Virus record (IMG/VR): IMGVR_UViG_3300022700_000082
Coordinates: 1 to 55,311 of that record
Source: a virus
Reading direction: 5' to 3' (one strand)
Length of the DNA: 55,311 nucleotides
Shown here: piece by piece, positions 528 through 55,311 of the stretch
Position numbering within the stretch: the stretch's first letter is position 1
How the letters are laid out: each line of letters opens with the position of its first letter
Notes under the pieces: generated by a model
Database searches by the model: none
What the model saw: the letters and a program-made list of their open reading frames with translations, nothing else
Told to the model about the DNA's origin: nothing
Translations under genes and position numbers: made by a program

Positions 528-3263
528 ATGGGACCTCAGAACCCGTTTTCCGAGTCGCTGCACGCCGAGAAATACCGCGCCCCCGGCGAGTCCTTCCGCG
601 AGGCAATGAACCGCGTCGCCTCCGCCCTGAAGGAAGACGATGAACACTACCACGCATTTCGGGAAGCTCTGCTCGATATGCGCTTCCTGCCGGGTGGCCG
701 GATCCAGGCTGCGGTGGGATCAACCCGAGACGTTACCCCCTACAACTGCTTCGTCTCCCAGACGATCCAGGACTCCTTCACCGCCGGCCGGTCCTCGATC
801 ATGGAGTGTGCCACGCTCGCGGCCGAGACGATGCGACGCGGCGGCGGGATCGGATACGACTTCTCGACCCTGCGCCCCCGTGGCGCGCTGATCCGCAAGC
901 TCCAGAGCAGCAGCTCAGGACTGGTCTCTTTTATGGAGATTTTCGACGCCATCTGCCGCTGCGTCTCCAGCTCCGGCCACCGGCGCGGCGCGCAGATGGG
1001 CGTCCTCCGCGTGGACCACCCGGACATCGAGGAATTCGTCCACGCGAAGCGCCGGCTCGGGCGGCTCGAAGGTTTCAACATATCGGTCGCCGTGACCGAC
1101 GAGTTTATGCTGGCCCTGGAAAACGACGGGCTGTTTGACCTGCAGTTTGAAGGCCAGGTCTACAAGACCATCAAAGCCCGCGCGCTCTGGGAAACCATCA
1201 TGCGGTCCTGCTGGGACTGGGCCGAGCCTGGCGTCCTCTTCATCGACACGATCAACCGGATGAACAACCTGGCCTACTGCGAGACGATCGCAGCGACGAA
1301 CCCGTCGATGCCCGCTGGGACACTGGTCCATACGGACCGCGGGGTCGTTCCCATCGAGACACTAGAAGGAGACAGTTTCCGTGTGAAGTCTCTCGACGGG
1401 ACATGGGCACAGGCAGAGTGCTTCCTCTCTGGTGAGAACGAAGAGCTGCTGGAGCTAGATTTCGGCGGAGGGCGGACCGTGCAGTCCACGCCCAAGCATC
1501 GGTGGCCTGTGCTCCTGAACGGGCGGTACGTCAAGGTAGACGCCAAGGACCTGCGGCCAGGAGACCTAATCCCAGCGCCTCGGAATGAGCGCATGGGGCA
1601 TAGTGTCCGTGACGATCTAAGCTACACGGACGGCCTCGTGGCGGGACTGGCCTTCGGCGACGGCAGCTACAACGAGCGTAGGGATGACGGTCGCGCCTAC
1701 CTACACTTCCACTTGAACCAGGAAGACGATGAGCTGCACTACATTGTGGCGACCTACTTCGGCGCGAACGTGGCGGTCCAGCCGGACGAGGCCGTGGTCC
1801 ACGTCAACAAGGACACGGACGTGCGTGGCTTCATGCAGAGGGTCGGGCTCACCTTTGGCAACAAGGACCAGCTCCCGAGCGAAGTCTGGAGGTCCAACGA
1901 CGAGTTCGTTGCCGGTTTCATCGACGGGCTATTCTCGTCGGACGGCCACGTCTCCCTGGCGAACGCGAAGATGCAGTTCACCAACAGGCGCCGCGCAGTC
2001 TGCCTAGAGCTTTCGAAACTTCTCGGCTTCCACGGAGTGCTCTCGACAGTTCGTACCAGCACATCAACCTTCGACGGTCAGGTGTTCGAGCGTACCGACC
2101 TCACGGTTCCCCACAACAGCGCGAAGCGTTTCGCAACCCTCTTCAGTCTGAGCTGCCTGCGAAAGCAGAACGCCCTGTCGGACCTGTGCGAGACTGAAAC
2201 GCGCGACAACGTGCTGACGGACCACGTGAAGCTGAAGACCGTGCGGACAGCGGGATCGGCCAAGGTATGGGACATCACGGTCTATCACGACCACCACGTC
2301 TTCCCCACGACGTGGTGCTACACCGGGAACTGCGGCGAGCAGCCGCTCCCGCCCGACGGCGCCTGCCTGCTGGGTTCGTTCAACCTGGTGAAGTACCTGC
2401 GCGACGTCGTTGTCGGCCCAGGGAAAACGGCCGTCGCGTTCGACTACGACAAGCTGGTGGCGGACATCCCCCCGATCATCCGCGCGATGGACAACGTCAT
2501 CGACTGCGCGACCTATCCCCTCTACGAGCAGGAGGCAGAAGCGAGGGCGAAGCGCCGGATGGGCCTCGGCGTGACCGGCGTCGCGAACGCCATCGAGGCG
2601 ATGGGCTTCCCCTACGGCTCGCCCGAGTTCTGTACTCGCCTGGAGGCGATCCTTCGGACGATCGCAGACCGCTGCTATCACGCCTCGGTCGACATAGCGA
2701 AGGAGAAGGGACCGTTCCCGGCCTACCGTCCCGAGTACCTGGACAGCGCCTTCCTGGCCCGGCCGGAGTTCGACAAGCTGCGGAACCGGATCGAAGTCCA
2801 CGGCATCCGGAACAGCCACCTGCTCTCGATCGCACCGACCGGGACGATCAGTGTCTGCGCGGACAACATCTCCAGCGGCATCGAGCCGGTCTTTAGTTAC
2901 GCGGCCGACCGCGTCTACATCGGGCCCAACGGACCCGAGCAGGTCGAGGTCCGGGACTACGGCGTCGAGCACCTGGGCGTCCACGGGAAGCGCGCGAAGG
3001 ACGTCACGCTCGACGAGCACCTGGCGGTCCTGAAGGTCGCCTCCGCCTGGGTCGACAGCGCCGTCTCGAAGACCACGAACCTGACCGGCGACGTGCCCTG
3101 GGAAAAGTTCAAGGACCTGTACCTGAAGGCCTGGCGCGCCGGCGTCAAGGGCTGCACCGTCTACAACGTCGACGGCAAGCGGAACGCGGTCCTAACCTCG
3201 AAGGACGAGGACGGGGCCAGCTGCCGGATCGACCCAACTACCGGGAGACAGGATTGTGACTGA
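528..3263 (+). CDS. nrdJ: class II (adenosylcobalamin-type) ribonucleotide reductase, interrupted by an intein
   Basis: 911-aa ORF with an AAGGAGA SD upstream. Extein motifs: RFLPGGRI, GGGIGYDFSTLRPRG, the active-site loop TNP/CGEQPL (split by the insert), and a C-terminal Cys pair (ASCRIDPTTGRQDC). Removing residues 260-601 leaves about 569 aa. Confidence 0.85.
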   Translation: MGPQNPFSESLHAEKYRAPGESFREAMNRVASALKEDDEHYHAFREALLDMRFLPGGRIQAAVGSTRDVTPYNCFVSQTIQDSFTAGRSSIMECATLAAETMRRGGGIGYDFSTLRPRGALIRKLQSSSSGLVSFMEIFDAICRCVSSSGHRRGAQMGVLRVDHPDIEEFVHAKRRLGRLEGFNISVAVTDEFMLALENDGLFDLQFEGQVYKTIKARALWETIMRSCWDWAEPGVLFIDTINRMNNLAYCETIAATNPSMPAGTLVHTDRGVVPIETLEGDSFRVKSLDGTWAQAECFLSGENEELLELDFGGGRTVQSTPKHRWPVLLNGRYVKVDAKDLRPGDLIPAPRNERMGHSVRDDLSYTDGLVAGLAFGDGSYNERRDDGRAYLHFHLNQEDDELHYIVATYFGANVAVQPDEAVVHVNKDTDVRGFMQRVGLTFGNKDQLPSEVWRSNDEFVAGFIDGLFSSDGHVSLANAKMQFTNRRRAVCLELSKLLGFHGVLSTVRTSTSTFDGQVFERTDLTVPHNSAKRFATLFSLSCLRKQNALSDLCETETRDNVLTDHVKLKTVRTAGSAKVWDITVYHDHHVFPTTWCYTGNCGEQPLPPDGACLLGSFNLVKYLRDVVVGPGKTAVAFDYDKLVADIPPIIRAMDNVIDCATYPLYEQEAEARAKRRMGLGVTGVANAIEAMGFPYGSPEFCTRLEAILRTIADRCYHASVDIAKEKGPFPAYRPEYLDSAFLARPEFDKLRNRIEVHGIRNSHLLSIAPTGTISVCADNISSGIEPVFSYAADRVYIGPNGPEQVEVRDYGVEHLGVHGKRAKDVTLDEHLAVLKVASAWVDSAVSKTTNLTGDVPWEKFKDLYLKAWRAGVKGCTVYNVDGKRNAVLTSKDEDGASCRIDPTTGRQDCD
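1305..2330 (+). mobile_element. intein (342 aa) with LAGLIDADG homing-endonuclease domain, inserted in nrdJ between NP and CGEQ
   Basis: Block A SMPAGTLVHTDRGVVPIETL (Ser1) and TxxH block STPKHRW. Two LAGLIDADG-like motifs: LVAGLAFGDGSY and FVAGFIDGLFSSDGHV. C-terminus is ...VWDITVYHDHHVFPTTWCYTGN, followed by the +1 Cys of NPCGE. Confidence 0.8.
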
Positions 3264-3489
3264 CCCGAATGAGCGCCAGATCGACATCGAGATGCAGCGG
3301 ATCTACATGCAGAGGATCCTGCGCGACTGCCAGGCCTCCGTCCTGATCGCAGTCGACAGAGAAGGGGGACTCGTCTCCGCCTACATGAACCTGAGCCCAA
3401 TAGAGCGACGGGGTATGATAGAACTGCTGCACGACTCGGTGCCGAGATTCTTCGCGGCAGAGGACGAAGACAATGGCGACGAAGACTAA
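3256..3489 (+). CDS. hypothetical protein (77 aa)
   Basis: GTG start overlapping the nrdJ stop by 8 nt. No motif recognised. Confidence 0.5.
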   Translation: MTDPNERQIDIEMQRIYMQRILRDCQASVLIAVDREGGLVSAYMNLSPIERRGMIELLHDSVPRFFAAEDEDNGDED

Positions 3490-4279
3490 AAAGTTCTGGA
3501 CTTTCGTTGGGGAACGTGAGACAATACGCATCCGAAAAGAACGCGGCGACGATCCTCCGTTCACTGATGACCCGAGAATGCGAGACTACTACTTCCCGAA
3601 CCTGCGACGGACCGACGACCCGGCAACCGTCTGGCTCCACGGCGCCCTGCTTCGGCGGCTCGAAAGCCCCGACCAGATCGTCCTGGCGTCGGCGGCCTTC
3701 CGGCTGACCGGCGGATCCATCGCGGCCGGGGAGGCGATGGTCCCGATGTTCACCGGCCCCGGCTTCGACGCGGACATCCTGCTGGGCACCCTGGGCCCCC
3801 TGAAGGCCCCGTTCAACGGGACCGTCCACAGGCACCTGCGTATGGCGACGCTGGCCGACCTGTCCGCCGCCGCCTGCACCTTGGGCGCCGCGAACGGCTA
3901 CTGGCCCCTCCTGAAGGGCGCGTCGCTGTATGACGCCCACAGGGCCCTCAAACGGACGCCGAAAATAGGCCCCGATCTGGCCTACGAGATCGTCTGCGAC
4001 CTGCGCCGGACGGCCGTCCTCCGGGACGCCTCCGACGTGCGCACGTGGGCCCACCCCGGCTTGTCGGCCGTCCTGGCGGCCGGGGCTATCACTGACAATG
4101 ACTGGCGCCACACACGCCAGGCAGATCGCCAGGGGACGCTGCAGCTGATGCGGTTCCTACTGGCGGAAGCCCAGATGGACTACCCAGACTGGGAACTAAG
4201 CGAGATACAGCGGTCTTTGACCCTGTACCACTTCTGGGCCCGAGAGGGCAAACCCACGAGGAGATACCGATGGAAATGA
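3473..4279 (+). CDS. alpha-glutamyl/putrescinyl-thymine pyrophosphorylase (aGPT-Pplase)-like protein (tentative)
   Basis: The N-terminal block FWTFVGERETIRIRKERGDDPPFTDDPRMRDYYFPNLRRTDDPATVWL matches my recollection of that family's conserved block (W..ER..IR..K..G...P.TdDP....Y.F.N..R..D..T.W). By-eye comparison only. Confidence 0.4.
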   Translation: MATKTKKFWTFVGERETIRIRKERGDDPPFTDDPRMRDYYFPNLRRTDDPATVWLHGALLRRLESPDQIVLASAAFRLTGGSIAAGEAMVPMFTGPGFDADILLGTLGPLKAPFNGTVHRHLRMATLADLSAAACTLGAANGYWPLLKGASLYDAHRALKRTPKIGPDLAYEIVCDLRRTAVLRDASDVRTWAHPGLSAVLAAGAITDNDWRHTRQADRQGTLQLMRFLLAEAQMDYPDWELSEIQRSLTLYHFWAREGKPTRRYRWK

Positions 4280-5091
4280 TCCGCGCGCGTAGTCCGCAGG
4301 CGGCGATGCCCGCCCTGCTTCAGGCCATGTACGCCGGGGGCGACCTCGACGACGATGGCAACCTGACCCTCGACCACCCGGTCTTGTTCACCTTCGAGCA
4401 GCCCCGCGAGCGGCTGATCTTCTGGCCATGGATCCGCCGGAACCCCGCCGGGGAACTGGCCTCCGCCCTGCAGCCCCTGGCCCAGGCCGAGGAACGCATC
4501 CCCAACGCGGCCGGGACCATCGTGAAGGGAAGCGAGCACTTCATCTTATCGACGCCCAGCCTGCTGGTTCAGGTCCGGATGGATCGGGCCAGCCGGTTCA
4601 ACATGCACGCGGTCGCCTCCGACTCGAACCCGTTCCAAGGTGCCTTCGGGCAGCTGGGCCTCCAGTTGTCGATCCTCCTGGAGCTGCTCGCGGGCGCCGC
4701 GAAGAAGAACGTCGGCGAGCTGACGATCCAGCACCAGCGCCTGGTCCTGCCGAAGACCGTCGTCGCCCAGCTGCTGGGCGTCGAGATGGCGAACATCGTC
4801 GAGGATCCCTACCGGAACATCAAGCCCCGGAAGATCGACGGCCCGCTGGACATCGCGAACATCCTGGCCACGCCCGAGGAGACGATGGGCAAATCCAAGT
4901 GGGTCCGGCACGTCGCGGGTCCCCTGCTGCTCGCCGGTCGCGCGGAGACGGCGGCCGAGGGAATGGAACTCGCCAAGAAGATCAAGGCCGACGACTTCAA
5001 GCGGTCGATGATCGAGTGGTGCGAGGCCGTCCAGCAGGCCGAGGACTTCAAGGCCCAGCAGGAGGGATCTGCCGGTGGCGAAGAAGGCTAG
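4270..5091 (+). CDS. thymidylate synthase / pyrimidine hydroxymethylase fold-like protein (tentative), with no Cys at the expected nucleophile position
   Basis: Weak by-eye similarity to the TS core. FTFEQPRERLIFWPWIRRNP compares with the N-terminal R/N block. STPSLLVQVRMD...FNMHAVASDSNPFQGAFGQLGLQLSILLELLAGAAKKNVGELTIQHQRLVL compares with ThyA APCHAFFQF...[29 protein letters not shown]...GDFVWTGGDTHLY. Ser sits where the catalytic Cys is expected. Confidence 0.3.
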   Translation: MEMIRARSPQAAMPALLQAMYAGGDLDDDGNLTLDHPVLFTFEQPRERLIFWPWIRRNPAGELASALQPLAQAEERIPNAAGTIVKGSEHFILSTPSLLVQVRMDRASRFNMHAVASDSNPFQGAFGQLGLQLSILLELLAGAAKKNVGELTIQHQRLVLPKTVVAQLLGVEMANIVEDPYRNIKPRKIDGPLDIANILATPEETMGKSKWVRHVAGPLLLAGRAETAAEGMELAKKIKADDFKRSMIEWCEAVQQAEDFKAQQEGSAGGEEG

Positions 5092-7033
5092 AATCGACGC
5101 CCTGCAGATGCCGATGTTTACGAGCGCGGACTCGTCGTGGCGCCCTCCCCATCTGAGTGATCTACCCAGCTGGAAGGGAGCGCCGCGCGTCGCGATCGAC
5201 ATCGAGACCTGCGACCCTGACCTAAAGAAGACCGGGCCGGGCGTCCGGCGCGGCGGCTACATCTGCGGCGTCTCCTTCGCCCTCCAGGGCGACCGCGCCT
5301 ACTACCTCCCCATCCGGCACTTCGGTGGGGACAACATGCCCCACGACCAGATGATCTACTATCTGAAGTCGATGGCGCAGGAGTACGGCGGCGAGGTCAT
5401 CACGGCCAATGGACAATATGACCTGGACTTCCTGGCCCAGGCCGGGATCACGTTCCCGCGCGTCCGCCGGTTCCGGGACGTCCAGATCGCCGACCCCCTG
5501 CTGTACGAGCTGCACAACAGCTACTCGCTGGCAGCGATCCTGACCCGCTGGGGCTACACCGACGGAAAGGACGAGTCGCTCCTGTACCAGGCGGCGAAGG
5601 ACCACGGCGTCGACCCGAAGGGGGGGCTGTGGAAATTGCCTGCCCGCTACGTCGGCCCCTACGCCGAGGGCGACGTCGACCGGCTCTGCGAACTGATCCA
5701 GCGGCAGGAGGACGAACTCCGGCGGCAGGACCTCTGGAACGTCTACGAGCTGGAGTCCCGGCTGCAACCGATCCTCCTGAAGATGCGGCGCAGGGGTGTG
5801 AAGGTCGATCAGGACCAGCTGGCGCGCGTCGAAAAGATGGCGCTAGACGCCGAGGCCAGCGACGCGGCGGAGATCACCCGCCTGACCGGCGTCCGGATGG
5901 GCGTCGACGACTGCAACAAGAAGCAGATCACGGCGGCCGTCCTCGACTCGCGGGGGATCCCCTACGGTTCGACCGAAACTGGCCAGCCCAAGATCGACGT
6001 CGCGACGCTGGAGGCCTCGGCCGATCCCGTCGCGGCGCTGATCCTCCACGCGAAGAAGTCGAACAAGATCCGCACCACGTTCGTCGAGTCGGTCCGCGAC
6101 CACCAGGTGAACGGCCGGATCCACGCGACCTTCAACCAGCTGCGCCGGACACGCGAGACCGGCGACGAGTCAGGCGCGAAGTACGGGCGCCTGTCCTGCT
6201 CCGACCCGAACCTACAGCAGCAGCCCGCCCGCGATCCGGAATACGCGAAGCTCTGGCGCGCGATCTACGTCCCCGACGAGCCCGGAATGATCTGGGCCGC
6301 CTGCGACTACTCGCAGCAGGAGCCCCGTATGCTAGTCCACTTCGCCGAATTGGTTGGGTTGAACGGCGCGCGGGACGCGGCCGAGCGCTACCGGAACGAC
6401 CCGAAGGCGGACAACCACGATATGATGACGGTAATGATCGACCCCACCCTGGAGGCGGTCGACCGGAAGGCGAAGCAGTTTGTCCAGGCGCGGAAGGCAG
6501 CGAAGGCGATCTTCCTGGGCCTATGCTACGGGATGGGATCCGGGAAGCTGGCGGCGTCGGTCGGTCTGCCCACTGTCACCAAGACTCGCGCGGACGGATC
6601 AACCTACCTGGTCGCTGGTCCCGAGGGGCAGGCGCTGCTCGACAAGTTCGACCGGAACGTCCCCTTCGTTCGCGGGATGGCCCGGCTGGTTGAGAAGGAG
6701 GCCAAGCGCAAGGGCTACATCAAGACACTGTCGGGACGGCGCTGCCGGTTCCCTGTCGACGCGGCCGGGAACTTCGAGTGGGCCCACAAGGGTCTGAACA
6801 GACTGATCCAAGGGAGCGCGGCGGATCAGACCAAGAAGGCGATGATCGACCTGGACGAGGCCGGGCACGAGACCCAGCTGCAGGTCCACGACGAAGTATG
6901 CCAGGGCGTCCGGAGCGCGAAGGAAGCCCGCGACATTGCACACATCATGGCGACCTGCCTGAACCTTCGGGTTCCGTCGCGCGTCGACATCGAACTCGGC
7001 CCCAACTGGGGCGAGGCGGAGGAGGTTGACTGA
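5075..7033 (+). CDS. family A DNA polymerase (Pol I-like) with 3'-5' exonuclease domain
   Basis: Exo I motif VAIDIETCD. Pol motifs RLSCSDPNLQQQP, DYSQQEPRMLVHF (motif A), RKAAKAIFLGLCYGMG (motif B) and QVHDEV (motif C). GTG start; downstream in-frame ATGs are possible alternatives. Confidence 0.9.
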   Translation: MAKKARIDALQMPMFTSADSSWRPPHLSDLPSWKGAPRVAIDIETCDPDLKKTGPGVRRGGYICGVSFALQGDRAYYLPIRHFGGDNMPHDQMIYYLKSMAQEYGGEVITANGQYDLDFLAQAGITFPRVRRFRDVQIADPLLYELHNSYSLAAILTRWGYTDGKDESLLYQAAKDHGVDPKGGLWKLPARYVGPYAEGDVDRLCELIQRQEDELRRQDLWNVYELESRLQPILLKMRRRGVKVDQDQLARVEKMALDAEASDAAEITRLTGVRMGVDDCNKKQITAAVLDSRGIPYGSTETGQPKIDVATLEASADPVAALILHAKKSNKIRTTFVESVRDHQVNGRIHATFNQLRRTRETGDESGAKYGRLSCSDPNLQQQPARDPEYAKLWRAIYVPDEPGMIWAACDYSQQEPRMLVHFAELVGLNGARDAAERYRNDPKADNHDMMTVMIDPTLEAVDRKAKQFVQARKAAKAIFLGLCYGMGSGKLAASVGLPTVTKTRADGSTYLVAGPEGQALLDKFDRNVPFVRGMARLVEKEAKRKGYIKTLSGRRCRFPVDAAGNFEWAHKGLNRLIQGSAADQTKKAMIDLDEAGHETQLQVHDEVCQGVRSAKEARDIAHIMATCLNLRVPSRVDIELGPNWGEAEEVD

Positions 7034-7260
7034 TGCAGAGTGACCCGACGTACGACCTGCTGACGATGTTCAAACACCAGGACGAGCAACGGCGCTGGAA
7101 GGCCGAGCGCGAGAACGCGAGCGCCCGCCTGGAACTGGCCCAGATTAGGGAGCGCCTCGCCGAGGTCCTCTCGCAGCACGAACCCGTCGCGAGCCTGAAC
7201 ATCGACCGCGACGACCTGCGGAAGGTCATCGACTACATCCGCAGCGGGAGGAAGATCTGA
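7033..7260 (+). CDS. hypothetical protein (75 aa)
   Basis: Start and stop both overlap the neighbouring genes by 1 nt (TGATG junctions). Charged and helical, with no motif. Confidence 0.55.
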   Translation: MQSDPTYDLLTMFKHQDEQRRWKAERENASARLELAQIRERLAEVLSQHEPVASLNIDRDDLRKVIDYIRSGRKI

Positions 7261-7730
7261 TGCAGAACTATAGCTGGCACCGCCGCTTCATTCAGATGTC
7301 CGGACTCGTGGCGCAATGGTCGAAGGACCCGTCGACGAAGGTCGGCGCCATCCTGGTGAACCCCGAGACCCGGACCGTCGTCGCGACCGGCTACAACGGC
7401 CTGCCCCGCGGCGTCGAGGACCGGCGCGAGCGGATGGAGGTCCGGCCGACGAAGTACCTCTGGACCGAGCACGCCGAACGGAACGCCATCCTGAACGCGG
7501 CACGGAATGGTCACTCGACTGATGGCTGCGTCCTCTACATGAACTTCGAGCCCTGCCCCTGCGCCGACTGCGCTCGGGCCGTGATCCAGGCCGGCATCAT
7601 CGAGATCGTAGGGCCCAACCGACCGTTCGTCGGCAAGGGCACGCAATGGACCGACAACCTAGTGGTCGCGATCGAGATGCTGCTGGAGGCCGGCGTCCGG
7701 ATGACCGTCGTTGAGGACCCGAAGCCATGA
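7260..7730 (+). CDS. dCMP deaminase (cytidine/deoxycytidylate deaminase zinc-binding fold)
   Basis: HAERNAI ... PCPCADCARAVIQAGI (the H-A-E and PC-x2-C zinc motifs); 156 aa. Confidence 0.85.
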   Translation: MQNYSWHRRFIQMSGLVAQWSKDPSTKVGAILVNPETRTVVATGYNGLPRGVEDRRERMEVRPTKYLWTEHAERNAILNAARNGHSTDGCVLYMNFEPCPCADCARAVIQAGIIEIVGPNRPFVGKGTQWTDNLVVAIEMLLEAGVRMTVVEDPKP

Positions 7731-8182
7731 GCGAAGCCAGGATGCGGAAGAAGGTCGTCAAGGCCCTGAAGCCCCTGCACGCGATCGCCGTCGAGAACCC
7801 CTGCCTGCCGGGGACCCCGGACGTCAACCACACAGAGGGCTGGATTGAGCTGAAGTGGCTGCGGTCCTGGCCCAGCAAGCCGGAGACCCCCGTCCGGCTC
7901 GACCATTACACAGCCCCGCAGAAGATCTGGGCCTACCAGCGGCGCCGGGCCGGAGGCCAGTGCTGGTTCCTCCTGCAGTGCGGCCGGGAATGGCTCCTGC
8001 TTGACGGCATCGTGGCGGCCATGCACGTCAACCAGGCAACAAAGCAAGAACTCATTCAGGTGGCCACGGCTTATTACAGCAGTGGACTGTCTGGTGAGGA
8101 TCTGGTAAAATTGCTCCGGCAGCGGCAATCCGCGTTCAGGCCAACACCCGCCGAGATCGCAAGATTCAGGGAGACCACATGA
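7727..8182 (+). CDS. VRR-NUC domain nuclease (PD-(D/E)XK)
   Basis: GTPDVNHTEGWIELKW matches the VRR-NUC G-x-PD ... E-x-K core. Sits in a replication-module context. Confidence 0.7.
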   Translation: MSEARMRKKVVKALKPLHAIAVENPCLPGTPDVNHTEGWIELKWLRSWPSKPETPVRLDHYTAPQKIWAYQRRRAGGQCWFLLQCGREWLLLDGIVAAMHVNQATKQELIQVATAYYSSGLSGEDLVKLLRQRQSAFRPTPAEIARFRETT

Positions 8183-8388
8183 AAGGTCCAGCGGGGTCGG
8201 ACCTTTCGCCCGGCAGAAATGTCTGTCGGAATTGTCGCCAAGCCCAATCGGCGCCGAGGACGGAAGATGTCAAGCAGCGTAGGCGAGAGGCCTACTGCGC
8301 GAGCTGCCATCCTCCGCTCGAAGCTCTCGCAGAGCTGCGGCAGATGTGCGACGAGATCAGGATGCACAACCAGGAGTACTGGGGATGA
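8179..8388 (+). CDS. small Cys-pair (zinc-ribbon-like) protein
   Basis: CRNC ... CASC pairs; ATGA overlaps at both ends. Confidence 0.5.
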   Translation: MKGPAGSDLSPGRNVCRNCRQAQSAPRTEDVKQRRREAYCASCHPPLEALAELRQMCDEIRMHNQEYWG

Positions 8389-10694
8389 TGACACCCGTGG
8401 AATTTTTGCAGCGAGTTCACCCCGGACGACCGTGGATCCTGACTGCCATTCAGCCTAGCCAGAAGGGCATCGAGACGCGAGCCTTCCTGCCCGGCCAGGA
8501 GGCCGAGGCGGAGAAGTGGATCGCGGAAAACAACGGTAAACGGAACTTGTATTGGAGCTGCGCCGAGGTTATCAACCCCGAGGACAAGAAGGCCAGCATC
8601 GACAACGTCGCGGCTGTCCACTGGCTCCACGTCGACATCGACGCTGGGCCCGGCGACCTGCTCGCGGAACTCGACCGGATCAAGGCCCTCGTCACGACGG
8701 ACCTGCCGACCGGCGGCATCGATCCCACGGTCGTCGTCTACTCCGGTGGAGGCTACCAGGCCTTCTGGCAGCTGGAGGAACCGATCCAGGTCCTGGGGAA
8801 CGCGGACGTCGCGGCCGAGGTCGCCCGCTACAACAAGCAGCTGGAGCTGATCTTCGGCGGGGACTCCTGCCACAATGTCGACCGGATCATGCGGCTGCCG
8901 GGGACGATGAACATTCCAAACCAGAGGAAAGTCGCGAAGGGCCGGGTCCCGGTCGAGGCGGCCGTCGTCGAGTTCCGGGAGACGACCTACCCCCTCACCG
9001 CGTTCAGCCAGGCGGCCGACGTCGGCCGGACCGGCGACGCGGACGACGTACAGATCAGTGGGAACGTCCAGCGCCTCCTGTCGGTCGACGACCTCGACCA
9101 GTGGAACGTCCACGACCGGACGAAGGTCATCGTCGTCCAGGGAAACGACCCCGACGAGCCTGACCGCCATCCGTCCCGGTCGGAGTGGCTGTTCGACTGC
9201 GTCTGCAACCTGGTCCGCGCCGAGGTCCCGGACGAGACCATCTACTCCGTCCTGACTGACCCAGGCTTCAAAATCAGCGCCTCGGTCCTGGAGACCTCGA
9301 ACCCTGACCGCTACGCGAAGAAGCAGATCAAGTCCGCGAAGGAGGTCGCGGTCTCCGAGAACCTCCACATGCTGAACGCGAAGCACGCGGTCATCGGAAA
9401 CCTCGGCGGGAAGTGCCTGGTCATCGAGGAAGTCTACGACGAGATGATGCAGCGCGACCGGCTGGTCCGCCAGACCTTCTCGGCCTTCCGGGAACGCTAC
9501 ATGAACAAGTTCGAGACCGTGGCCGTCGGCGACAAGACGAAGCAGGTCGCGATCGGTGACTGGTGGCTGCGCCACCCGAAGCGCCGCGAGTACGATCGGC
9601 TGGTGTTCCAGCCTGGCCGGGACGTCCCCGGCGCCTATAACCTCTGGCGCGGCTTCGGCTGCAACGCCCTGCCTGGGTCGAACCACGAACGCTTCCTGAA
9701 GCATCTCCACGACACGGTCTGCCAGGGCGTCGAAGAGCACTACACCTACCTGGTAGGCTGGCTCGCGCGGGCGGTCCAGCATCCCGACCAGCCTGGGCAC
9801 ACCGCGATCGTCATGCGCGGACGCCAGGGCACCGGCAAGTCCTTCTTCGCGAAGCACTTCGGTCGGCTGTTCGGGCGGCACTTCCTGCACGTCTCGAACG
9901 CCAGCCACCTGGTCGGCAACTTCAACGGGCACCTGCGGGACGCGGTCGTCGTCTTCGGCGACGAGGCCTTCTATGCCGGCGACAAGCGCCACGAGTCTGT
10001 CCTGAAGACGCTGATCACCGAGGAGTCCCTGGTCATCGAGACGAAGGGCGTCGACGCCGAGGCGAGCCCAAACTACTGCCACCTGATCCTGGCATCGAAC
10101 TCGAACTGGGTCGTCCCCGTCGGGGCTGGCGATCGTCGCTACTTCGTCCTCGACGTCGGCGAGGAGTATGCTCGGAACGTCAGGCACTTCGGCGACATCG
10201 CGCGCGACCTGGAGAACGGCGGCTACGAGAACCTGCTCCACTTCCTGATGCACTACGACCTGACCGACTACAACGTCCAGGCGATCCCCGACACCGGCGC
10301 CCGCCGCGACCAGCACGAGGAGTCGCTCGCCCCGCATGAGGAGTGGTGGCTGTCCGTCCTGGAGGACGGCCTCCTGGGCGGCGTGGTCTGGGACCCCGAC
10401 CACGCGGAGATCGTCGTCCCGAACTCCCCCGTCTGGCAGTCCTATCAAACAGCGACGGAGAACACCCCCCTGGTCAGGAAGCTTTCGAATACGAAGCTGG
10501 GCAACTTCCTGAAGCGGATGCTGCCCGGCGACTACCCGAAGCGGAAGAAGATCCGCGTCGATGGACGACCGGAGAACGCGCGCGTCTTTCCGACCCTCGA
10601 CGTCGCCCGGAAGGAATGGGATCGGATCAGCGGAGCGCCTCGTCAGTGGCCCGATGTCTCCCTCATCGACCCCGACGACGACCTGCCCTTCTGA
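8385..10694 (+). CDS. primase-polymerase / SF3 (P4-D5-VirE type) helicase fusion
   Basis: N-terminal motifs HWLHVDIDAG, VVYSGGGYQAFW, DRIMRLPGTMN. Walker A GRQGTGKS and Walker B VVVFGDEA. The ORF's first ATG is 8346, but 8385 is preferred because of its ATGA overlap with the upstream stop and an AGGAG 8 nt upstream. Confidence 0.85.
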   Translation: MMTPVEFLQRVHPGRPWILTAIQPSQKGIETRAFLPGQEAEAEKWIAENNGKRNLYWSCAEVINPEDKKASIDNVAAVHWLHVDIDAGPGDLLAELDRIKALVTTDLPTGGIDPTVVVYSGGGYQAFWQLEEPIQVLGNADVAAEVARYNKQLELIFGGDSCHNVDRIMRLPGTMNIPNQRKVAKGRVPVEAAVVEFRETTYPLTAFSQAADVGRTGDADDVQISGNVQRLLSVDDLDQWNVHDRTKVIVVQGNDPDEPDRHPSRSEWLFDCVCNLVRAEVPDETIYSVLTDPGFKISASVLETSNPDRYAKKQIKSAKEVAVSENLHMLNAKHAVIGNLGGKCLVIEEVYDEMMQRDRLVRQTFSAFRERYMNKFETVAVGDKTKQVAIGDWWLRHPKRREYDRLVFQPGRDVPGAYNLWRGFGCNALPGSNHERFLKHLHDTVCQGVEEHYTYLVGWLARAVQHPDQPGHTAIVMRGRQGTGKSFFAKHFGRLFGRHFLHVSNASHLVGNFNGHLRDAVVVFGDEAFYAGDKRHESVLKTLITEESLVIETKGVDAEASPNYCHLILASNSNWVVPVGAGDRRYFVLDVGEEYARNVRHFGDIARDLENGGYENLLHFLMHYDLTDYNVQAIPDTGARRDQHEESLAPHEEWWLSVLEDGLLGGVVWDPDHAEIVVPNSPVWQSYQTATENTPLVRKLSNTKLGNFLKRMLPGDYPKRKKIRVDGRPENARVFPTLDVARKEWDRISGAPRQWPDVSLIDPDDDLPF

Positions 10695-11079: not shown

Positions 11080-11802
11080 ATGAGAAAGTTCGACACCGGC
11101 GCGACGCGCGACACCGACGCGGGCAAGCTCGACTACGAGGGCTTCCTGTCGCCGGTAGTCCTGGAGCGCTTCGCCGAGTACATGCACAAGAACCGGATTC
11201 AGGCCGACGGGAAGCTGCGCGACTCCGACAACTGGCAGAAGGGGATCCCACGCGACGCCTTCATGAAGAGCGCCTGGCGCCACTTCATGGACTGGTGGAA
11301 GCAGCACCGACGCAGCGACGATCCCGGCCTGCTCCAGGACTCGATCTGCGCGCTGCTGTTCAACGCCTTGGGCTACCTGCACGAGGAGTTGAAGGCCATC
11401 GGCCCGCAGCCGACCGGCGGCGAGGACCGCCGGCTGGTGGGCGTGCCGGAGACCCCCGCAGACTATCCGGCCGAGGGCGTCTTCGTCGCCTACGCCCCGG
11501 AGGAGACCTACGGCCGCACGCCTGATGGCGAGGTCTTCCCGACCGCCGAGGCCCAGACCATCCCGACCGCCGAGCCCCAGCCCATCACCGTCGCGCAAGG
11601 TCGCGGCGAGGTTACCGCGACCTATGACGATGGCAACGTCCGCCGGTTCGTCGAGATCTTCGACGGCGAGGAGCTGGTGGACGACACCGCGAACCTTTAT
11701 GAGGCCGTCAGGAAGGCCGTTGTGTTGGCGCAGCTCTATGGCGTCGGCTTCGACCGCCTGGCAGACATCATGGAAAAAATCGCAGCAAAGGAGGGTCTGT
11801 AA
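11080..11802 (+). CDS. DUF5664 / dATP-dGTP diphosphohydrolase N-terminal-like domain protein
   Basis: RKFDTGATRDTDAGKLDYEGFLSPVVLERFAEYMHKNR...DSDNWQKGIPRDAFMKSAWRHFMDWW matches my memory of that family. A short PTAE(A/P)Q tandem repeat lies at nt ~11530-11590. AGGAGG SD upstream. Confidence 0.5.
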   Translation: MRKFDTGATRDTDAGKLDYEGFLSPVVLERFAEYMHKNRIQADGKLRDSDNWQKGIPRDAFMKSAWRHFMDWWKQHRRSDDPGLLQDSICALLFNALGYLHEELKAIGPQPTGGEDRRLVGVPETPADYPAEGVFVAYAPEETYGRTPDGEVFPTAEAQTIPTAEPQPITVAQGRGEVTATYDDGNVRRFVEIFDGEELVDDTANLYEAVRKAVVLAQLYGVGFDRLADIMEKIAAKEGL

Positions 11803-12303: not shown

Positions 12304-12714
12304 GTGAACCAGTATTGCCTAGAGTGTGGGTGTTGGCTCAAGCTGTACGACCACTATGAATGCAGGAACTGCCGGAACATCTACTCTCGGGAACATGTGA
12401 TCCAGGCCGATGATCCTATGGTGGCCCACGGAATCCGATGCGACACCTGCGAGGGAACCGGAACTGAGGAGCAAACGTTTGAGGAAGCGCACCCCTACGG
12501 AGACACCGTCGCCTACGAGATGCTGGTCGAGTTCGTCGACTGCGAGGAGTGCAGCGGGAAGGGCTACTTCCCGGACGAGAACAAGAAGGCCTGCGTGATC
12601 TGCGGCAGGGACATCCCCGACGGGACCGGCGTCCTGGTCAACGGCTGGCGCGTCCACGAGGACTTCGCGTGCTCGACCGACGAACCCCCGCACCTGGATG
12701 GCTGGGACGGATGA
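12304..12714 (+). CDS. DnaJ-type CxxCxGxG zinc-finger protein
   Basis: CDTCEGTG and CEECSGKG repeats plus additional CxxC pairs. GTG start preceded by GGGAGG. Confidence 0.6.
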   Translation: MNQYCLECGCWLKLYDHYECRNCRNIYSREHVIQADDPMVAHGIRCDTCEGTGTEEQTFEEAHPYGDTVAYEMLVEFVDCEECSGKGYFPDENKKACVICGRDIPDGTGVLVNGWRVHEDFACSTDEPPHLDGWDG

Positions 12715-12791
12715 AACTGGAACCCCTGCTCGGCATCGCGATCTGGCTCGCCATTGTCGGGACCTGGAACCTGTGGAAAAGGAGACGCTGA
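12711..12791 (+). CDS. 26-aa single-TM micropeptide (MKLEPLLGIAIWLAIVGTWNLWKRRR)
   Basis: ATGA overlap with the upstream stop, and its TGA shares 1 nt with the clpP-like ATG. Hydrophobic core with a basic tail. Confidence 0.4.
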   Translation: MKLEPLLGIAIWLAIVGTWNLWKRRR

Positions 12792-13360
12792 TGGCGACGA
12801 TCCGCCGAGACGATCATGACCGCTTCTTCGACTACGACATCCACGTCCCGAGCCGGACCCTGTTCGTCGGCGGAGAGGTCGACGCCGAACTGGCCGAGCG
12901 CCTGATCAAGGGGCTCCACCTGCTGACGGCCGCCGCGAAGGAGGGCCCGGTCCGGATCCTCCTGAACTCCCCCGGCGGCGACGTCTACGATGGGCTCGCA
13001 GCCTACGACGCGATCGCGACCTGTCCGGCCCACGTCACAGTCGTCGCCTTCGGGCACGCAATGTCGATGGGCTCCTGGATCATCCAGGCGGCCGACGAAC
13101 GGGTCCTGGCTCCGTCCTGCACGATGATGATCCACCACGGCTCCGGCGGGATCCACGACCGATACAAGTATGTCCAGGCCGAGGCGGCCGAACACGCTCG
13201 GATCGCGCGCCTGATGGAGCAGACCTACCTGCGCCGGATCAAGGAGAGGGACCCGACCTTCTCGGCCCGGCGCCTGAAGACGATGCTCGACACCGACACC
13301 TACCTGACCGCCGTCGAGGCGGTCGAGCTGGGCCTGGCCGACCGGGTCCTGGGGGACTAG
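12791..13360 (+). CDS. clpP: ClpP-like serine protease (S14 family)
   Basis: LNSPGGDVYDGLAAYD, catalytic Ser context GHAMSMGS, His context MMIHHG. Strong SD AAAGGAG before 12791. The ORF's first start at 12698 lacks an SD. Confidence 0.8.
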   Translation: MATIRRDDHDRFFDYDIHVPSRTLFVGGEVDAELAERLIKGLHLLTAAAKEGPVRILLNSPGGDVYDGLAAYDAIATCPAHVTVVAFGHAMSMGSWIIQAADERVLAPSCTMMIHHGSGGIHDRYKYVQAEAAEHARIARLMEQTYLRRIKERDPTFSARRLKTMLDTDTYLTAVEAVELGLADRVLGD

Positions 13361-14647: not shown

Positions 14648-14821
14648 GGCACACTAATTGACACATGGCAGGATGCGCGAAATTCCGCCACTGATCGTGC
14701 ATACCACCAAGCCAGAAGGGACAACGGGGAATCCTCGGGAAGCATGCGGAGCCGTGAGGTATGGCACACGACTTGCTACTACATACATGTAAGCGCAAAC
14801 CAAACAGGAGGAACCAAGATG
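14648..14821 (+). repeat. copy A of a duplicated ~175-nt regulatory cassette (copy B at 15789..15965)
   Basis: Shared blocks: ggcacactaattgacNcatggcaggatgcgcgaaat, atcgtgcat, tggcacacNNNttgctacta, caaaccaaacNggaggNaacaagATGA. Roughly 70% identity by eye. Confidence 0.8.
14762..14777 (+). promoter_or_regulatory. sigma54 (RpoN) -24/-12 promoter
   Basis: TGGCACacgacTTGCT matches TGGCAC-N5-TTGCW with correct GG-N10-GC spacing. Intergenic, about 40 nt upstream of an SD (CAGGAGGA) and the ATG at 14819. Confidence 0.7.
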
Positions 14822-15147: not shown

Positions 15148-15494
15148 GGCCAATCTCCCAGATCCGCCGCGACACAGACAACATGAAGAAAGAAGGTAGT
15201 AAGATGGGAATTGGAAAGTATTGCATCGTCCGCACGTATTGTGCTGGAGTGTTCGCTGGCGAGCTTATCAGCCGAAATGGAAAGGAGGGCGTGGTCGTCA
15301 ACGCCCGTCGGTTGTGGTTCTGGTCCGGTGCCGCGACGTTGAGCGAGCTTGCCCTGCGCGGCGTGGGGCGCCCCGAGAAATGCAAGTTCCCCGACGCGGT
15401 ACCCGAAGTCCTGCTGACGGAGATCATCGAGGTCATCGTCTGCACCGCCGATGCGCGGGCGAGTATTGAGGCGGTGCCACCATGGCGAGCATGA
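15144..15494 (+). CDS. conserved phage hypothetical protein (core starts MGIGKYCIVRTYCAGVFAGEL)
   Basis: The ATG at 15144 forms an ATGA overlap with the upstream stop. Alternative starts at 15184 or 15205. The KYCIVRT...ARRLWFWSGAATLSELA core resembles a recurrent phage family, from memory. Confidence 0.6.
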   Translation: MRPISQIRRDTDNMKKEGSKMGIGKYCIVRTYCAGVFAGELISRNGKEGVVVNARRLWFWSGAATLSELALRGVGRPEKCKFPDAVPEVLLTEIIEVIVCTADARASIEAVPPWRA

Positions 15495-15664
15495 TTGACG
15501 ACGGCGACGGCTACGGCACCGACTACGGCTCCGGCTCCGGCTCCGGCGACGGCTACGGCTACGGCTCCGGCGACGGCTCCGGCTACGGCGACGGCTACGG
15601 CTCCGGCTACGGCTCCGGCGACGGCTACGGCTCCGGCGACGGCGACGGCTCCGGCTACGGCTGA
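15482..15664 (+). CDS. (X-Gly)n low-complexity protein, X = Asp/Tyr/Ser/Thr (60 aa)
   Basis: MASMIDDGDGYGTDYGSGSGSGDGYGYGSGDGSGYGDGYGSGYGSGDGYGSGDGDGSGYG. Encoded by degenerate GGCTACGGCTCCGGCGAC tandem repeats (~15497-15661). The start overlaps the upstream gene by 13 nt. Confidence 0.45.
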   Translation: MASMIDDGDGYGTDYGSGSGSGDGYGYGSGDGSGYGDGYGSGYGSGDGYGSGDGDGSGYG

Positions 15665-15807
15665 CGAACGGGCGGGGCGGGCGTAGCGAACGGATGAACA
15701 ACCGCCAGGTGGTCGATTACTTCCTGCGCGAGGCCCGTGCCTGCGAACGGGAGCTGGAAATCCGGAAAACTGGCCGCGTGCTGACGGTGGCACACTAATT
15801 GACCCAT

Positions 15808-15850
15808 GGCAGGATGCGCGAAATCCGGCTCCCGTATCGTGCATCCTGCC
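15808..15850 (+). promoter_or_regulatory. perfect 10-bp dyad GGCAGGATGC-N23-GCATCCTGCC (candidate enhancer/UAS or RNA hairpin)
   Basis: The arms at 15808-15817 and 15841-15850 are exact reverse complements. In copy A (14667-14676 / 14699-14708), 7 of the 10 stem positions can still base-pair. Confidence 0.5.
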
Positions 15851-17504: not shown

Positions 17505-18005
17505 GTGAACTCGTCCAACAGTTCGCTGATCCGCACCGCGCAAGAGATCTGGCGGCAGGACCTGCGCATGCTGCTGGACGAGGGCGGGAAAGCCATGGGC
17601 TATCGCGACCCGTTCTTCCGGCGCGTGGCGTTGCCGATGTGGCTGGCGCGGCGGGAATACCCTTCTGCTGCGCTGGACACATTATGGCGGACGATTGGCG
17701 CATGGCTGTCATGTATTGGATCAAAGGAGCGATGGATGTTGTCGAAAAGTAGTGCCGCGCATAACCGGCGGCTGTTTCTGCTGAAGCAGGTGCCGTTCTT
17801 CGGTGCCGTACTGGCCAAGGACCTGGAGCACATGGACAAGGTGGAACACCGTGTGGGCGATCTGGCTGCGCTTGTGTCGGGCGGAACCGTCCGCAGGTTG
17901 CGTCGCGCAGGGAAGATGCCCAGGTATTCGAAAACGTGGCGAGGTGCGTTTCGTGTGTGGCGTGAGCGGTATATGGATCCGCGCACGAATGAAGTAGGAC
18001 CATGA
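17505..18005 (+). CDS. hypothetical protein (166 aa, GTG start) in lower-GC cassette
   Basis: Longest sense ORF in this stretch. Codon usage is visibly less GC3-biased than in flanking genes. No motif. Confidence 0.4.
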   Translation: MNSSNSSLIRTAQEIWRQDLRMLLDEGGKAMGYRDPFFRRVALPMWLARREYPSAALDTLWRTIGAWLSCIGSKERWMLSKSSAAHNRRLFLLKQVPFFGAVLAKDLEHMDKVEHRVGDLAALVSGGTVRRLRRAGKMPRYSKTWRGAFRVWRERYMDPRTNEVGP

Positions 18006-18684
18006 ATGAGCTGGCTTTATTCGCGGGTGCTGGTGGAGGCATACTCGGCGGCCAACTGCTCGGATGGCGCACCGTCTGCGCTGTCGAAAACGATCCCTAC
18101 GCCGCAAGCGTACTTGTCGCCCGGCAGAATGACGGCGTTCTCCCGCCTTTCCCGATTTGGGATGACGTTCGCACCTTTGACGGACGACCTTGGCGCGGAA
18201 TGTTGATGTGGTTTCGGGCGGGTTCCCATGCCAAGCATTTAGTACGGCGGCTAGAGGGCGAAACACCGCGCATAATCTGTGGCCGCAGATGCTCCGCGTT
18301 ATCGGCGACGTATGCCCACAATTCGTGTTTGCCGAAAACGTCAGCGAAGACGCGATCTGTGAAGCACAAGCCGACCTTGCCTGTGCTGGATACACGGCGA
18401 TCCGTGGCATGGTCGCGGCGGGCGACGTGGGCGCAGACCATCCTCGGGAAAGATGGTGGTTGGCTGCCGACTCCGACCACAAAGGCAAATTGGGCGGCAG
18501 CCTCGATGCAGAAGTGGCCAAGCTCAAGGCGTGCGACAAAGGTGTTTGGTCACCCTACGCCGGAGGTCCACGAATATCTGATGGGGTGGCCCCCAGGGTG
18601 GACAGATTTAAAGCCGTTGGGAACGGGCAAATACCAGTCGTGGCTGCAATCACATGGCAAGTCCTGTCCGGAAGAAAGGATTGA
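18002..18684 (+). pseudogene. C5 cytosine DNA methyltransferase split across two reading frames (frameshift near 18185-18200)
   Basis: The frame starting at 18002 carries motif I LFAGAGGG and motif II CAVENDPYA. The frame from 18190 carries motif IV GGFPCQAFS, motif VI FAENV, motif VIII HPRERWWL and motif X AVGNGQIPVV. The junction reads ...VRTFDGRPW / ARNVDVVSGGFPCQ. Confidence 0.75.
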
Positions 18685-18687
18685 CCG

Positions 18688-19050
18688 ATGAACAAGTGCC
18701 CGGTCTGTAAAGGGCGTGGGGGTTCTCCTGGGATTGCATGCGGCGAGGACAGATGCAAGGACGACAGAGGGCTCTGGAGCAACGCGAACCGGATCCTCTG
18801 CGAACAATACCACGGCCCGCCGCCGGTCGACCCCGACGGGAAGCGGATCGTCTGCCGCCACCTGAACCACGACCTGCGGCTCGAGAACCTGGCCTGGGGG
18901 ACGGACGACTACCGCGAGATGATCCGCCTGCGGGAGACCGGGATGACCTGCCAGGTCGGCTGCTCCGTCGGATACGTCTCCGACATCTGCCGAGGCGGGG
19001 CCGCCGCCTGGGAGACCGAGGACCTGTGGGAGGAGGTCGGCGCCGACTGA
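18688..19050 (+). CDS. HNH-like endonuclease with C-terminal HTH-like segment (tentative)
   Basis: CPVC...C...C N-terminus. IVCRHLNHDLRLENLAWGTDDY resembles the H-N-(N) core of phage HNH enzymes. Starts 4 nt after the methylase stop. Confidence 0.4.
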   Translation: MNKCPVCKGRGGSPGIACGEDRCKDDRGLWSNANRILCEQYHGPPPVDPDGKRIVCRHLNHDLRLENLAWGTDDYREMIRLRETGMTCQVGCSVGYVSDICRGGAAAWETEDLWEEVGAD

Positions 19051-55274: not shown

Positions 55275-55311
55275 TCATCCTCTTTGCCCTCGCCACCAGG
55301 ATCCAACCTCG
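55213..55311. repeat. terminal overlap, identical to 1..99
   Basis: Direct comparison of the two ends of the window. Confidence 0.95.

Follow-up and report, generated by a model that had tools for sequence, protein, structure and literature searches.

In phages of the family Mesyanzhinovviridae, the interval between the genes for ribonucleotide reductase (RNR) and the family-A DNA polymerase (Pol A) is a cluster of about 10-13 genes for the synthesis of hypermodified thymidine (PMC8989533, PMC11472151). This cluster starts with a clade-2 alpha-glutamyl/putrescinyl-thymine pyrophosphorylase (aGPT-Pplase), an amino-acid:DNA transferase (AADT), followed by tailoring enzymes, either pyridoxal-phosphate (PLP) and radical S-adenosylmethionine (radical-SAM) enzymes or a flavin adenine dinucleotide enzyme and an acetyltransferase, and by a P-loop 5-hydroxymethyldeoxyuridine (5-hmdU) DNA kinase, and it ends with a clade-1 aGPT-Pplase and a thymidylate synthase (TS)-like dUMP hydroxymethylase (PMC8989533, PMC11472151). 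The equivalent interval is analysed here in the IMG/VR virus record IMGVR_UViG_3300022700_000082, whose whole stretch of 55,311 nucleotides is referred to as the window, and where it holds only an open reading frame (ORF) of 77 amino acids (aa) and two longer ones, ORF1 and ORF2. The latter two are homologous to proteins of the thymidine-hypermodification cluster but lack the conserved catalytic residues of their families, and the pair is maintained, coupled and beside Pol A, across a deep clade of phages although the partner enzymes are missing. The explanation towards which we lean, with a little better than even confidence, is that two pseudoenzymes with their ancestry in a thymidine-hypermodification cluster have been exapted for a non-catalytic role linked to replication. 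The two genes and their junction are as follows:

3473-4279, plus strand: ORF1, 268 aa, PF18723 protein
4270-5091, plus strand: ORF2, 273 aa, TS-fold protein
4258-4279, plus strand: coupling junction, with GAGGAG and the ATG of ORF2 inside the codons for the C-terminal RRYRWK of ORF1

The nearest kin of this phage, by gene order and protein similarity, are the Mesyanzhinovviridae (YuA, M6, PaMx11, PhiJL001 and Stenotrophomonas phage Sonora); by tblastn, its Pol A and RNR are 51% (YuA gp21) and 64% identical to those of YuA. A first-pass annotation of this DNA, made from its letters alone, had pointed to a YuA/M6-like phage, and both the gene order and these identities bear this out. A megablast search with positions 3200-7800 gave no match among GenBank phages. 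As far as such comparisons reach, the clade has no cultured representative in the GenBank phage collection, and no cultured phage carries the ORF2 subfamily.

ORF1 matches PF18723 through its residues 6-58 (E 1.8e-13, 50.9 bits for a cutoff of 25; the model has 281 positions), which are the N-terminal block where the first-pass annotation had recognised an aGPT-Pplase signature. The family was formerly named 'aGPT-Pplase clade 1' and is now 'HMUDK_hel, 5-hmdU DNA kinase helical domain', a name explained by SP10 gp186, a natural fusion of kinase and helical domain (PMC5889632), which also ties clade 1 functionally to the kinase. No fused kinase was found among long PF18723 proteins, ten long representatives of which carried no second Pfam domain. 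The precomputed PF18723 match is present in all 13 ORF1-subfamily members of the protein database, and clade 1 as a whole is widespread, with 3,162 cluster representatives in one profile search. Homology extends along the full protein: tblastn recovered YuA gp14, PaMx11 gp50, PhiJL001 gp19 and Sonora 042 at 22-30% identity, and hhalign aligned ORF1 with YuA gp14, PaMx11 gp50 and their like over 266 columns, full length (probability 99.9%, E 2e-34). The protein is basic (pI 9.5), and its AlphaFold2 (AF2) model (pLDDT 90.2) is all-helical and resembles the helical-domain proteins of phiRSL1, PhiW-14 and SP10 in BFVD, with query-normalised TM-scores (TMq) of 0.65-0.81. Thus ORF1 compares with the described clade-1 proteins (M6 gp55, YuA gp14, PaMx11 gp50, PhiW-14 C9DG43 and the C-terminal domain of SP10 gp186) in its all-helical fold (TMq to 0.81), its N-terminal block, its helix-hairpin-helix (HhH)-like block, its C-terminal RYxW tail and its genomic slot, between the RNR and the TS-like gene plus polymerase. 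Unlike them, it has no adjacent or fused 5-hmdU DNA kinase, is about 30-60 residues shorter and lacks the E-H-x-L-C-E-x-x-K motif, TGAY, the GPG loop and E47.

The similarity of ORF1 to the clade-2 transferases (PF18724; M6 gp51, ViI gp247, PaMx11 gp46/PUGT and YuA gp10), which belong to the same pathway as clade 1 in canonical phages and have no counterpart in the window genome, is limited to a distantly alike helical, glycosylase-like architecture. The hhalign probability with clade 2 was 0.9%, phmmer gave no match to the solved PUGT chain, the catalytic Cys/Glu pair of clade 2 (PUGT C247/E243) is absent, and clade-2 structures in BFVD matched weakly (TMq 0.51-0.55, E 0.04-0.4). A Foldseek search of the PDB with the ORF1 model returned a weak likeness to HhH glycosylases (E 0.2-1), without PUGT in the top 50; a glycosylase assignment was considered and not adopted, given this weak resemblance. 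By sequence, ORF1 gave a single spurious PDB match (18.8 bits) and nothing in NCBIfam. These comparisons make ORF1 a divergent clade-1 member of PF18723, the paralogue represented by M6 gp55 and YuA gp14, and not a clade-2 transferase, so that the earlier description of the pair as aGPT-Pplase-like plus TS-like is right for ORF1 in a historical sense and wrong if a clade-2 transferase is meant.

A residue census of the 20-member ORF1 subfamily against 144 canonical clade-1 proteins (YuA gp14 numbering) separates what has been kept from what has been replaced. The N-terminal block (R15, F41, N43, R46, D49, W54, R77) and the HhH-like block (G199, Y204, E205, D209, T213, D221, W225) are kept, while E47, the TGAY motif, the GPG loop, R234, R293 and the stretch E296-H297-x-L-C300-E301-x-x-K304 are replaced. 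Position 300 is Cys in 136 of the 144 canonical proteins, and in the subfamily it is Thr (nine), Ser (five) or Gly (one) in 15 of the 20, with Cys kept in five; position 301, Glu in 136 of 144, is Leu (14) or Met (six) in all 20. The Cys-Glu motif of clade 1 resembles the catalytic E-x-x-L-C of clade 2; the hhalign comparison between the two clades is not significant. A reconstitution in M6 lysates without the clade-1 protein gp55 still gave the glycinylated intermediate (PMC8989533), an independence that is compatible with a clade-1 role outside the core chemistry, and a literature search found no function assigned to the clade-1 protein or M6 gp55.

The first 63 residues of ORF2 match the PHROG of the Mesyanzhinovviridae TS-like proteins; neither ORF2 nor its homologues match any Pfam family (PF00303 Thymidylat_synt included), whereas YuA gp17 and PaMx11 gp51 do. 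ORF2 also has no NCBIfam match, no PDB sequence match, whether its own sequence or a profile was the query, and no tblastn match among GenBank phages. In the reverse direction, tblastn of the Sonora protein against the window aligned ORF2 end to end (20.7% identity, E 2e-4), and a profile of 25 ORF2 sequences was aligned by hhalign with canonical phage dUMP hydroxymethylases at 99.6% probability (E 1e-23). The AF2 model (pLDDT 92.7, pTM 0.90) has 129 Foldseek matches in the PDB at E<=1e-3, the top ones all of the TS family: the best is MilA (5jp9_B, E 1.2e-6, TMq 0.64), and the HY126 dCMP hydroxylase and many ThyA structures are also among them. The diverged TS fold that had been suspected from the letters is thus confirmed, and Pfam, hhalign and AF2/Foldseek together gave significant matches to both the clade-1 aGPT-Pplase family and the TS fold.

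Nevertheless, the active site of this fold is gone from ORF2. The 25 sequences were aligned with E. coli ThyA, whose numbering is used, and with the YuA, PaMx11, Sonora and PhiJL001 homologues, which retain the full TS catalytic set. In the ORF2 family, a deletion of about 75 residues across W80-C146 removes Y94, R126, R127, C146 and H147; R21 aligns with a gap, R166 is replaced by Ser, Ala or Thr, S167 by Asp or Glu, and H207 and Y209 are variable. Consequently, the phosphate-binding arginines R21, R126', R127' and R166, together with Y94 and H147, are absent or substituted in all 25 sequences. ORF2 has a single, non-conserved Cys. On the other hand, ORF2 retains a lineage-specific N-terminus (M.(V/M)I..RN.Q.A), the PRER motif and a C-terminal helical extension of about 90 residues (DPY…G.KSKW.R.VA.PL…IKADDWRR.M.EW), of the type that separates YuA-type hydroxymethylases from cellular TS. 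The homology with the Mesyanzhinovviridae dUMP hydroxymethylases (YuA gp17, PaMx11 gp51, PhiJL001 gp24, Sonora 044; phrog_5131) covers this N-terminus, the core and the C-terminal extension, with the same fold and an equivalent position upstream of Pol A; what ORF2 lacks in comparison with them are the core residues deleted, the catalytic Cys, the phosphate-binding Arg and the Y94, H147, H207 and Y209 positions. MilA CMP hydroxymethylase, T4 dCMP hydroxymethylase, HY126 AfhB (at Foldseek ranks 7-8) and RB69 gp48 share the fold of ORF2 and, unlike it, keep Cys146 and the nucleotide-binding arginines. ORF2 is a TS-fold protein derived from a dUMP hydroxymethylase of the Mesyanzhinovviridae type.

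The loss of family-defining catalytic residues in both proteins leaves the candidate of the first-pass annotation, a pyrimidine modification module, without support as a working module of the known kind. A module of a new kind is a different matter: ORF1 and ORF2 could be an active, kinase-independent enzyme pair with a rebuilt active site, installing or processing a pyrimidine modification not yet described; ORF1, for example, could flip a base out of the DNA, and the remodelled TS-fold pocket of ORF2 could do new chemistry. Each subfamily has invariant polar residues of its own, and the HhH-like block of ORF1 (E172/D176/D188/W192) is kept in 20 sequences. TS-fold enzymes have changed cofactor and chemistry before, as in the flavin-dependent 5-hydroxy-dCMP (5hodCMP) synthases (PMC13326640), with which ORF2 shares an Asn at the D169 position (21 of the 25 sequences). 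The genome also encodes a dCMP deaminase and a MazZ-like dNTP diphosphohydrolase domain, which are typical helpers in base replacement. However, the flavin-dependent synthases retain Cys146 (PMC13326640), so the Asn at 169 fails to rescue an enzymatic reading of ORF2; all the characterised enzymes of the TS family, the flavin branch included, keep Cys146 and the phosphate-binding arginines, none of which ORF2 has, and one of its homologues (P0010) has no cysteine at all. The deletion takes out the folate/cofactor wall and the arginines donated by the partner subunit, two related loci that still have the pair (L013 and L014) encode an ORF1 homologue without the D176/D188/W192 block, and no other modification enzyme is encoded; the ThyX gene of a further relative (L008) points to ordinary dTMP synthesis. 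We therefore regard a rebuilt active site as unlikely. Slightly less probable still is its most specific form, a new two-protein, kinase-independent machine that writes or reads a pyrimidine modification in DNA with a base-flipping helical subunit and a Cys-less, rebuilt TS-fold pocket; if true, TS-fold chemistry would have gained a new branch, working at the polymer level. The earlier suggestion of a different, undescribed modification finds no positive support here and is unlikely.

The absence of the partner enzymes holds for the whole phage, since an exact direct repeat of 99 bp at both ends (1-99 and 55213-55311) makes the contig circular and the window a complete, circularly closed genome of about 55,212 bp (63% GC). 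Pfam searches of all plausible ORFs, and tblastn with the kinase, transferase, PLP, radical-SAM, HD and TS proteins of relatives, found in this genome no 5-hmdU DNA kinase (PF18748), no AADT (PF18724) and no PLP or radical-SAM enzyme, and the same Pfam census gave no ThyA, ThyX or TET/JBP dioxygenase gene. Thus the lack of P-loop kinase, PLP and radical-SAM ORFs noticed in the first pass stands genome-wide. None of the three activities required for thymidine hypermodification, an active dUMP hydroxymethylase (or T-dioxygenase), a 5-hmdU DNA kinase (5-HMUDK) and a clade-2 transferase, is encoded. Nor was a kinase found within 10 kb on either side of the pair in ten related loci. In two of these, L013 and L014, an extra 1.5 kb before the ORF1 homologue was considered as the place of a hidden kinase, and rejected, the region being a tRNA array of 9-11 genes between the 77-aa ORF and the ORF1 homologue (L013 7585-8707; L014 7988-8804).

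The canonical pathway could in principle still run if kinase, transferase and hydroxymethylase were supplied by the host or by phage proteins that are no longer recognisable, and several ORFs of the genome have indeed no family assignment. Against this, the 5-hmdU DNA kinases and AADTs of characterised systems are specific to phages (PMC8989533), the genome lacks a TET/JBP dioxygenase, and the absences recur in all ten related loci; moreover, a kinase would have no substrate, because ORF2, the only TS-like gene, cannot make 5-hmdUMP. This is the least probable of the explanations considered. The known chemistry, from dUMP to 5-hmdUMP, 5-hmdU-DNA, 5-PmdU and hypermodified T, would not run in this phage, so that its virion DNA most likely has thymine in the ordinary form. 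This would come from the host thymidylate synthase (or from the phage ThyX in the relative that encodes it), acting on dUMP supplied by the phage dCMP deaminase.

The genes around ORF1 and ORF2 are:

528-3263, plus strand: RNR, single large chain, with an intein carrying a LAGLIDADG endonuclease (Pfam Ribonuc_red_lgC E 1.6e-103, LAGLIDADG_3, Intein_splicing)
3256-3489, plus strand: 77-aa acidic ORF (pI 4.4), overlapping the RNR stop and the ORF1 start
5075-7033, plus strand: Pol A (Pfam DNA_pol_A E 6.5e-49)
7260-7730, plus strand: dCMP deaminase, which makes dUMP (Pfam E 3.7e-21, phrog_174)
8346-10694: primase-helicase (Pfam)

Coordinates, coding signal and Pfam agree with the first-pass picture of two overlapping ORFs between the RNR and a family A polymerase, with a dCMP deaminase downstream. 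From the RNR through the 77-aa ORF, ORF1 and ORF2 to Pol A, every gene overlaps its successor: ORF1 and ORF2 by 10 nt, and the stop of ORF2 and the GTG start of Pol A by 17 nt. Shine-Dalgarno sequences precede ORF1 (GAGGA, 8 nt before the ATG), ORF2 (GAGGAG, 6 nt before the ATG) and Pol A (AGGAGGG, 8 nt before the GTG), and no promoter-like or terminator-like sites were found on the plus strand of the RNR-to-Pol A stretch. The GC content at third codon positions (GC3) of ORF1 (0.83) and ORF2 (0.91) is typical of the genes of this genome and gives a strong coding signal. Judged by these signals, ORF1 and ORF2 are real, co-translated genes. The junction between them, with its Shine-Dalgarno sequence, ATG and 10-nt overlap, is kept in eight of nine genomes, the overlap being 13 nt in L006.

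The intein of the RNR is about 1 kb long, and the YuA RNR aligns (tblastn) only to the flanking exteins, 606-1304 and 2310-3260. The 77-aa ORF has no Pfam or PHROG match and has homologues at 32-63% identity in L005, L006, L008, L009, L013 and L014; as the tRNA array parts it from the ORF1 homologue in the last two, it belongs with the RNR rather than with the pair. Most pair-bearing genomes have the dCMP deaminase as a neighbour of the pair; L005 and L006 showed none in the portions that were covered.

Searches of a protein database yielded about 13 homologues of ORF1 and, after a profile search, 26 of ORF2, all of them metagenomic and full-length and with 39-67% identity, and a scan of IMG/VR contributed further pair-bearing genomes, with an identity of about 30%. 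In all, at least 10 divergent phage contigs from metagenomes (30-67% identity) have both genes intact, and all the loci with enough sequence (L005-L014) show an ORF1 homologue, directly followed by an ORF2 homologue and then by Pol A. In the relatives, identity to the window is 39-53% for ORF1 and 41-61% for ORF2, compared with 60-74% for Pol A and 47-58% for other conserved accessory genes. The deepest divergence retains the N-terminal block and C-terminal tail of ORF1 and the N-terminus and C-terminal extension of ORF2 rather than the active-site regions, a pattern that fits a binding or scaffolding role. In the ORF1 homologues of L013 and L014, where the HhH-like block is lost, only the first ~60 residues and a C-terminal region with P.RRYRW at its end are left.

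Could the pair consist of non-functional relics on their way to loss? The disappearance of catalytic residues and partner enzymes, an evolution faster than that of the neighbouring enzymes and the existence of decayed modification genes elsewhere in the genome would all fit. Two features bear on the latter:

17505-18005, plus strand: 166-aa ORF with a TS-like C-terminal-extension motif (tblastn E 1e-8; phrog_5131 positions 253-322)
18002-18691, plus strand: C5-cytosine DNA methyltransferase with at least 3 frameshifts (Pfam DNA_methylase matches only the 18190-18684 frame)

The methyltransferase motifs swap between two frames (I-III, then IV/VI/VIII, then TRD/IX, then X), as in a decayed gene, and the long ORFs elsewhere in the genome are intact. 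This gene shows what unconstrained decay looks like in the same genome, in contrast with ORF1 and ORF2, whose frames are intact down to 30% identity in about 20 and 26 lineages, respectively, with 25-35 invariant columns, a kept junction and Shine-Dalgarno sequence, and a ratio of non-synonymous to synonymous substitutions (dN/dS) below 1, a value that is rough here, given that synonymous sites are nearly saturated and also constrained by GC3. Relics are consequently very unlikely. In the terms of the first-pass annotation, which had offered a reduced or decayed pathway, 'reduced' describes the absence of the partners well, and 'decayed' does not apply to a pair that is intact, conserved and coupled across a deep clade.

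As for the 166-aa ORF, its residues 8-54 (GYRDPFFRRVALPMW…) are about 51% identical to the canonical C-terminal-extension motif of phage TS-like proteins, closer to the canonical phage dUMP hydroxymethylases than the copy of ORF2 itself, and its stop overlaps the start of the methyltransferase. It has only a 45-residue piece of the extension and is either a stand-alone second copy of the motif or a gene remnant.

Proteins that are catalytically dead yet conserved would also suit a binding-only role in host takeover or anti-defence instead of replication, for instance with the TS-fold protein as a decoy for, or an inhibitor of, some host protein of nucleotide metabolism or defence, or with a glycosylase-like ORF1 that binds DNA and shields it from host DNA glycosylases or nucleases. 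The basic character and weak HhH-glycosylase-like fold of ORF1, and its faster evolution relative to the core replication genes, as in an arms race, are in keeping with such a role. However, anti-defence genes are usually located in variable early regions, whereas the pair has a fixed place in the operon of RNR and Pol A and is translationally coupled to the latter, and the analysis points to no target. This alternative seems improbable, to about the same degree as the two-protein machine mentioned above.

The reading that we favour, an exapted pseudoenzyme pair, would start from an ancestor with a cluster of the YuA/M6 type, whose clade-1 helical protein and TS-like dUMP hydroxymethylase would have given rise to ORF1 and ORF2. 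The clade would have lost the catalytic part of the cluster, i.e. the 5-hmdU DNA kinase, the clade-2 amino-acid:DNA transferase and the tailoring enzymes, and ORF1 and ORF2 would have shed their active-site residues while staying under purifying selection as a coupled pair in the Pol A operon. The pair would have been kept for a non-enzymatic function already present in the ancestral enzymes, whether exapted or always there, with ORF1 and ORF2 most likely acting as stoichiometric partners in the machinery of replication and nucleotide supply: ORF1 would contribute its basic helical body and conserved N-terminal block, and ORF2 a TS-fold scaffold with its lineage-specific N- and C-terminal extensions. 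A precedent may be found in T4, where the dCMP hydroxymethylase gp42 and other enzymes of a dNTP-synthetase complex are reportedly tied physically to the replication apparatus, an idea from the Mathews and Greenberg laboratories. There, a TS-family protein would have a structural role at the replication fork besides its catalysis, as is proposed for ORF2, although only by analogy: the proteins of the T4 complex are active enzymes, unlike ORF2.

A non-catalytic role in a co-translated machinery of replication and nucleotide supply is most plausibly what maintains the pair, and it is also the weakest step of the argument. Several observations weigh against it. Both subfamilies have invariant residues of their own (e.g., C175, R247 and W255 in ORF1; E74, K185, R187 and K239 in ORF2), which could form a new active site. 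The clade-1 Cys-Glu motif whose loss is invoked is only putatively catalytic, its resemblance to clade 2 being at the level of motifs. Adjacency and coupling are only suggestive as signs of contact with Pol A or between ORF1 and ORF2, and the evolution of both genes is about two times faster than that of Pol A and the primase, with dN/dS about twice that of Pol A.

Both families were already known, and what appears to be new is a clade-wide, kinase-less version of the pair, doubly disabled but conserved. Its existence suggests that selection acts on a further, non-catalytic function of both the clade-1 Pplase and the YuA-type hydroxymethylase. The clade-1 paralogue sits in nearly every thymidine-hypermodification cluster, yet it is dispensable in the M6 reconstitution, and the pair-bearing clade of uncultured, YuA-like siphophages allows the question of what clade 1 is for to be tested free of the confounding modification chemistry. 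In practical terms, a PF18723 match or a 'thymidylate synthase' PHROG label alone does not predict hypermodified DNA, and pair-bearing genomes would be false positives wherever hypermodifying phages are counted through marker genes. It is unusual for a pair of pseudoenzymes to be conserved and linked to a replicase, and a literature search for TS pseudoenzymes in phages found none.

Some further features of the window deserve a mention. Its other genes of nucleotide metabolism are, besides the RNR and the dCMP deaminase, those for a MazZ-like diphosphohydrolase domain, at threshold, and for a nucleoside 2-deoxyribosyltransferase-like protein (phrog_355, DUF4406/DUF7768) at 53785-54108, upstream of a RecD-like helicase; L009 and L010 have a second nucleoside 2-deoxyribosyltransferase-like gene (PF05014) between Pol A and the dCMP deaminase. 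The MazZ-like domain corresponds to the N-terminal ~100 residues of the ORF at 11080-11802, which match PF18909 (N-terminal domain of MazZ-type dATP/dGTP diphosphohydrolases) with 27.0 bits, equal to the threshold, and a domain of this type recurs in L005 and L008. A Z-genome was considered on its account and rejected, because a PurZ-like gene is absent and the match is only at threshold. Scans of the window for tRNAs and Rfam families detected no tRNA genes and no Rfam match.

A ClpP-like serine protease is encoded at 12698-13360 (Pfam CLP_protease E 3e-34; PHROG head-maturation protease), among early/middle genes and far from the capsid genes at ~21-27 kb. In a gene-poor region, a 41-nt element with a TTGACA-like box occurs in two copies that are 93% identical (14648-14688 and 15789-15829), and it resembles the repeated phage-specific promoters annotated in YuA. 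A tandem 12-nt repeat at 15477-15686, inside the small ORF 15482-15664, encodes a peptide rich in Gly, Asp, Tyr and Ser (GDGYGS…). Finally, a non-coding repeat of about 42 nt, with the core GAGCGATCNTTCCCC, is found five times at 19247-19511, just upstream of the gene at 20031-20513 that opens the block of packaging and structural genes, and it is possibly a packaging site or a replication origin.

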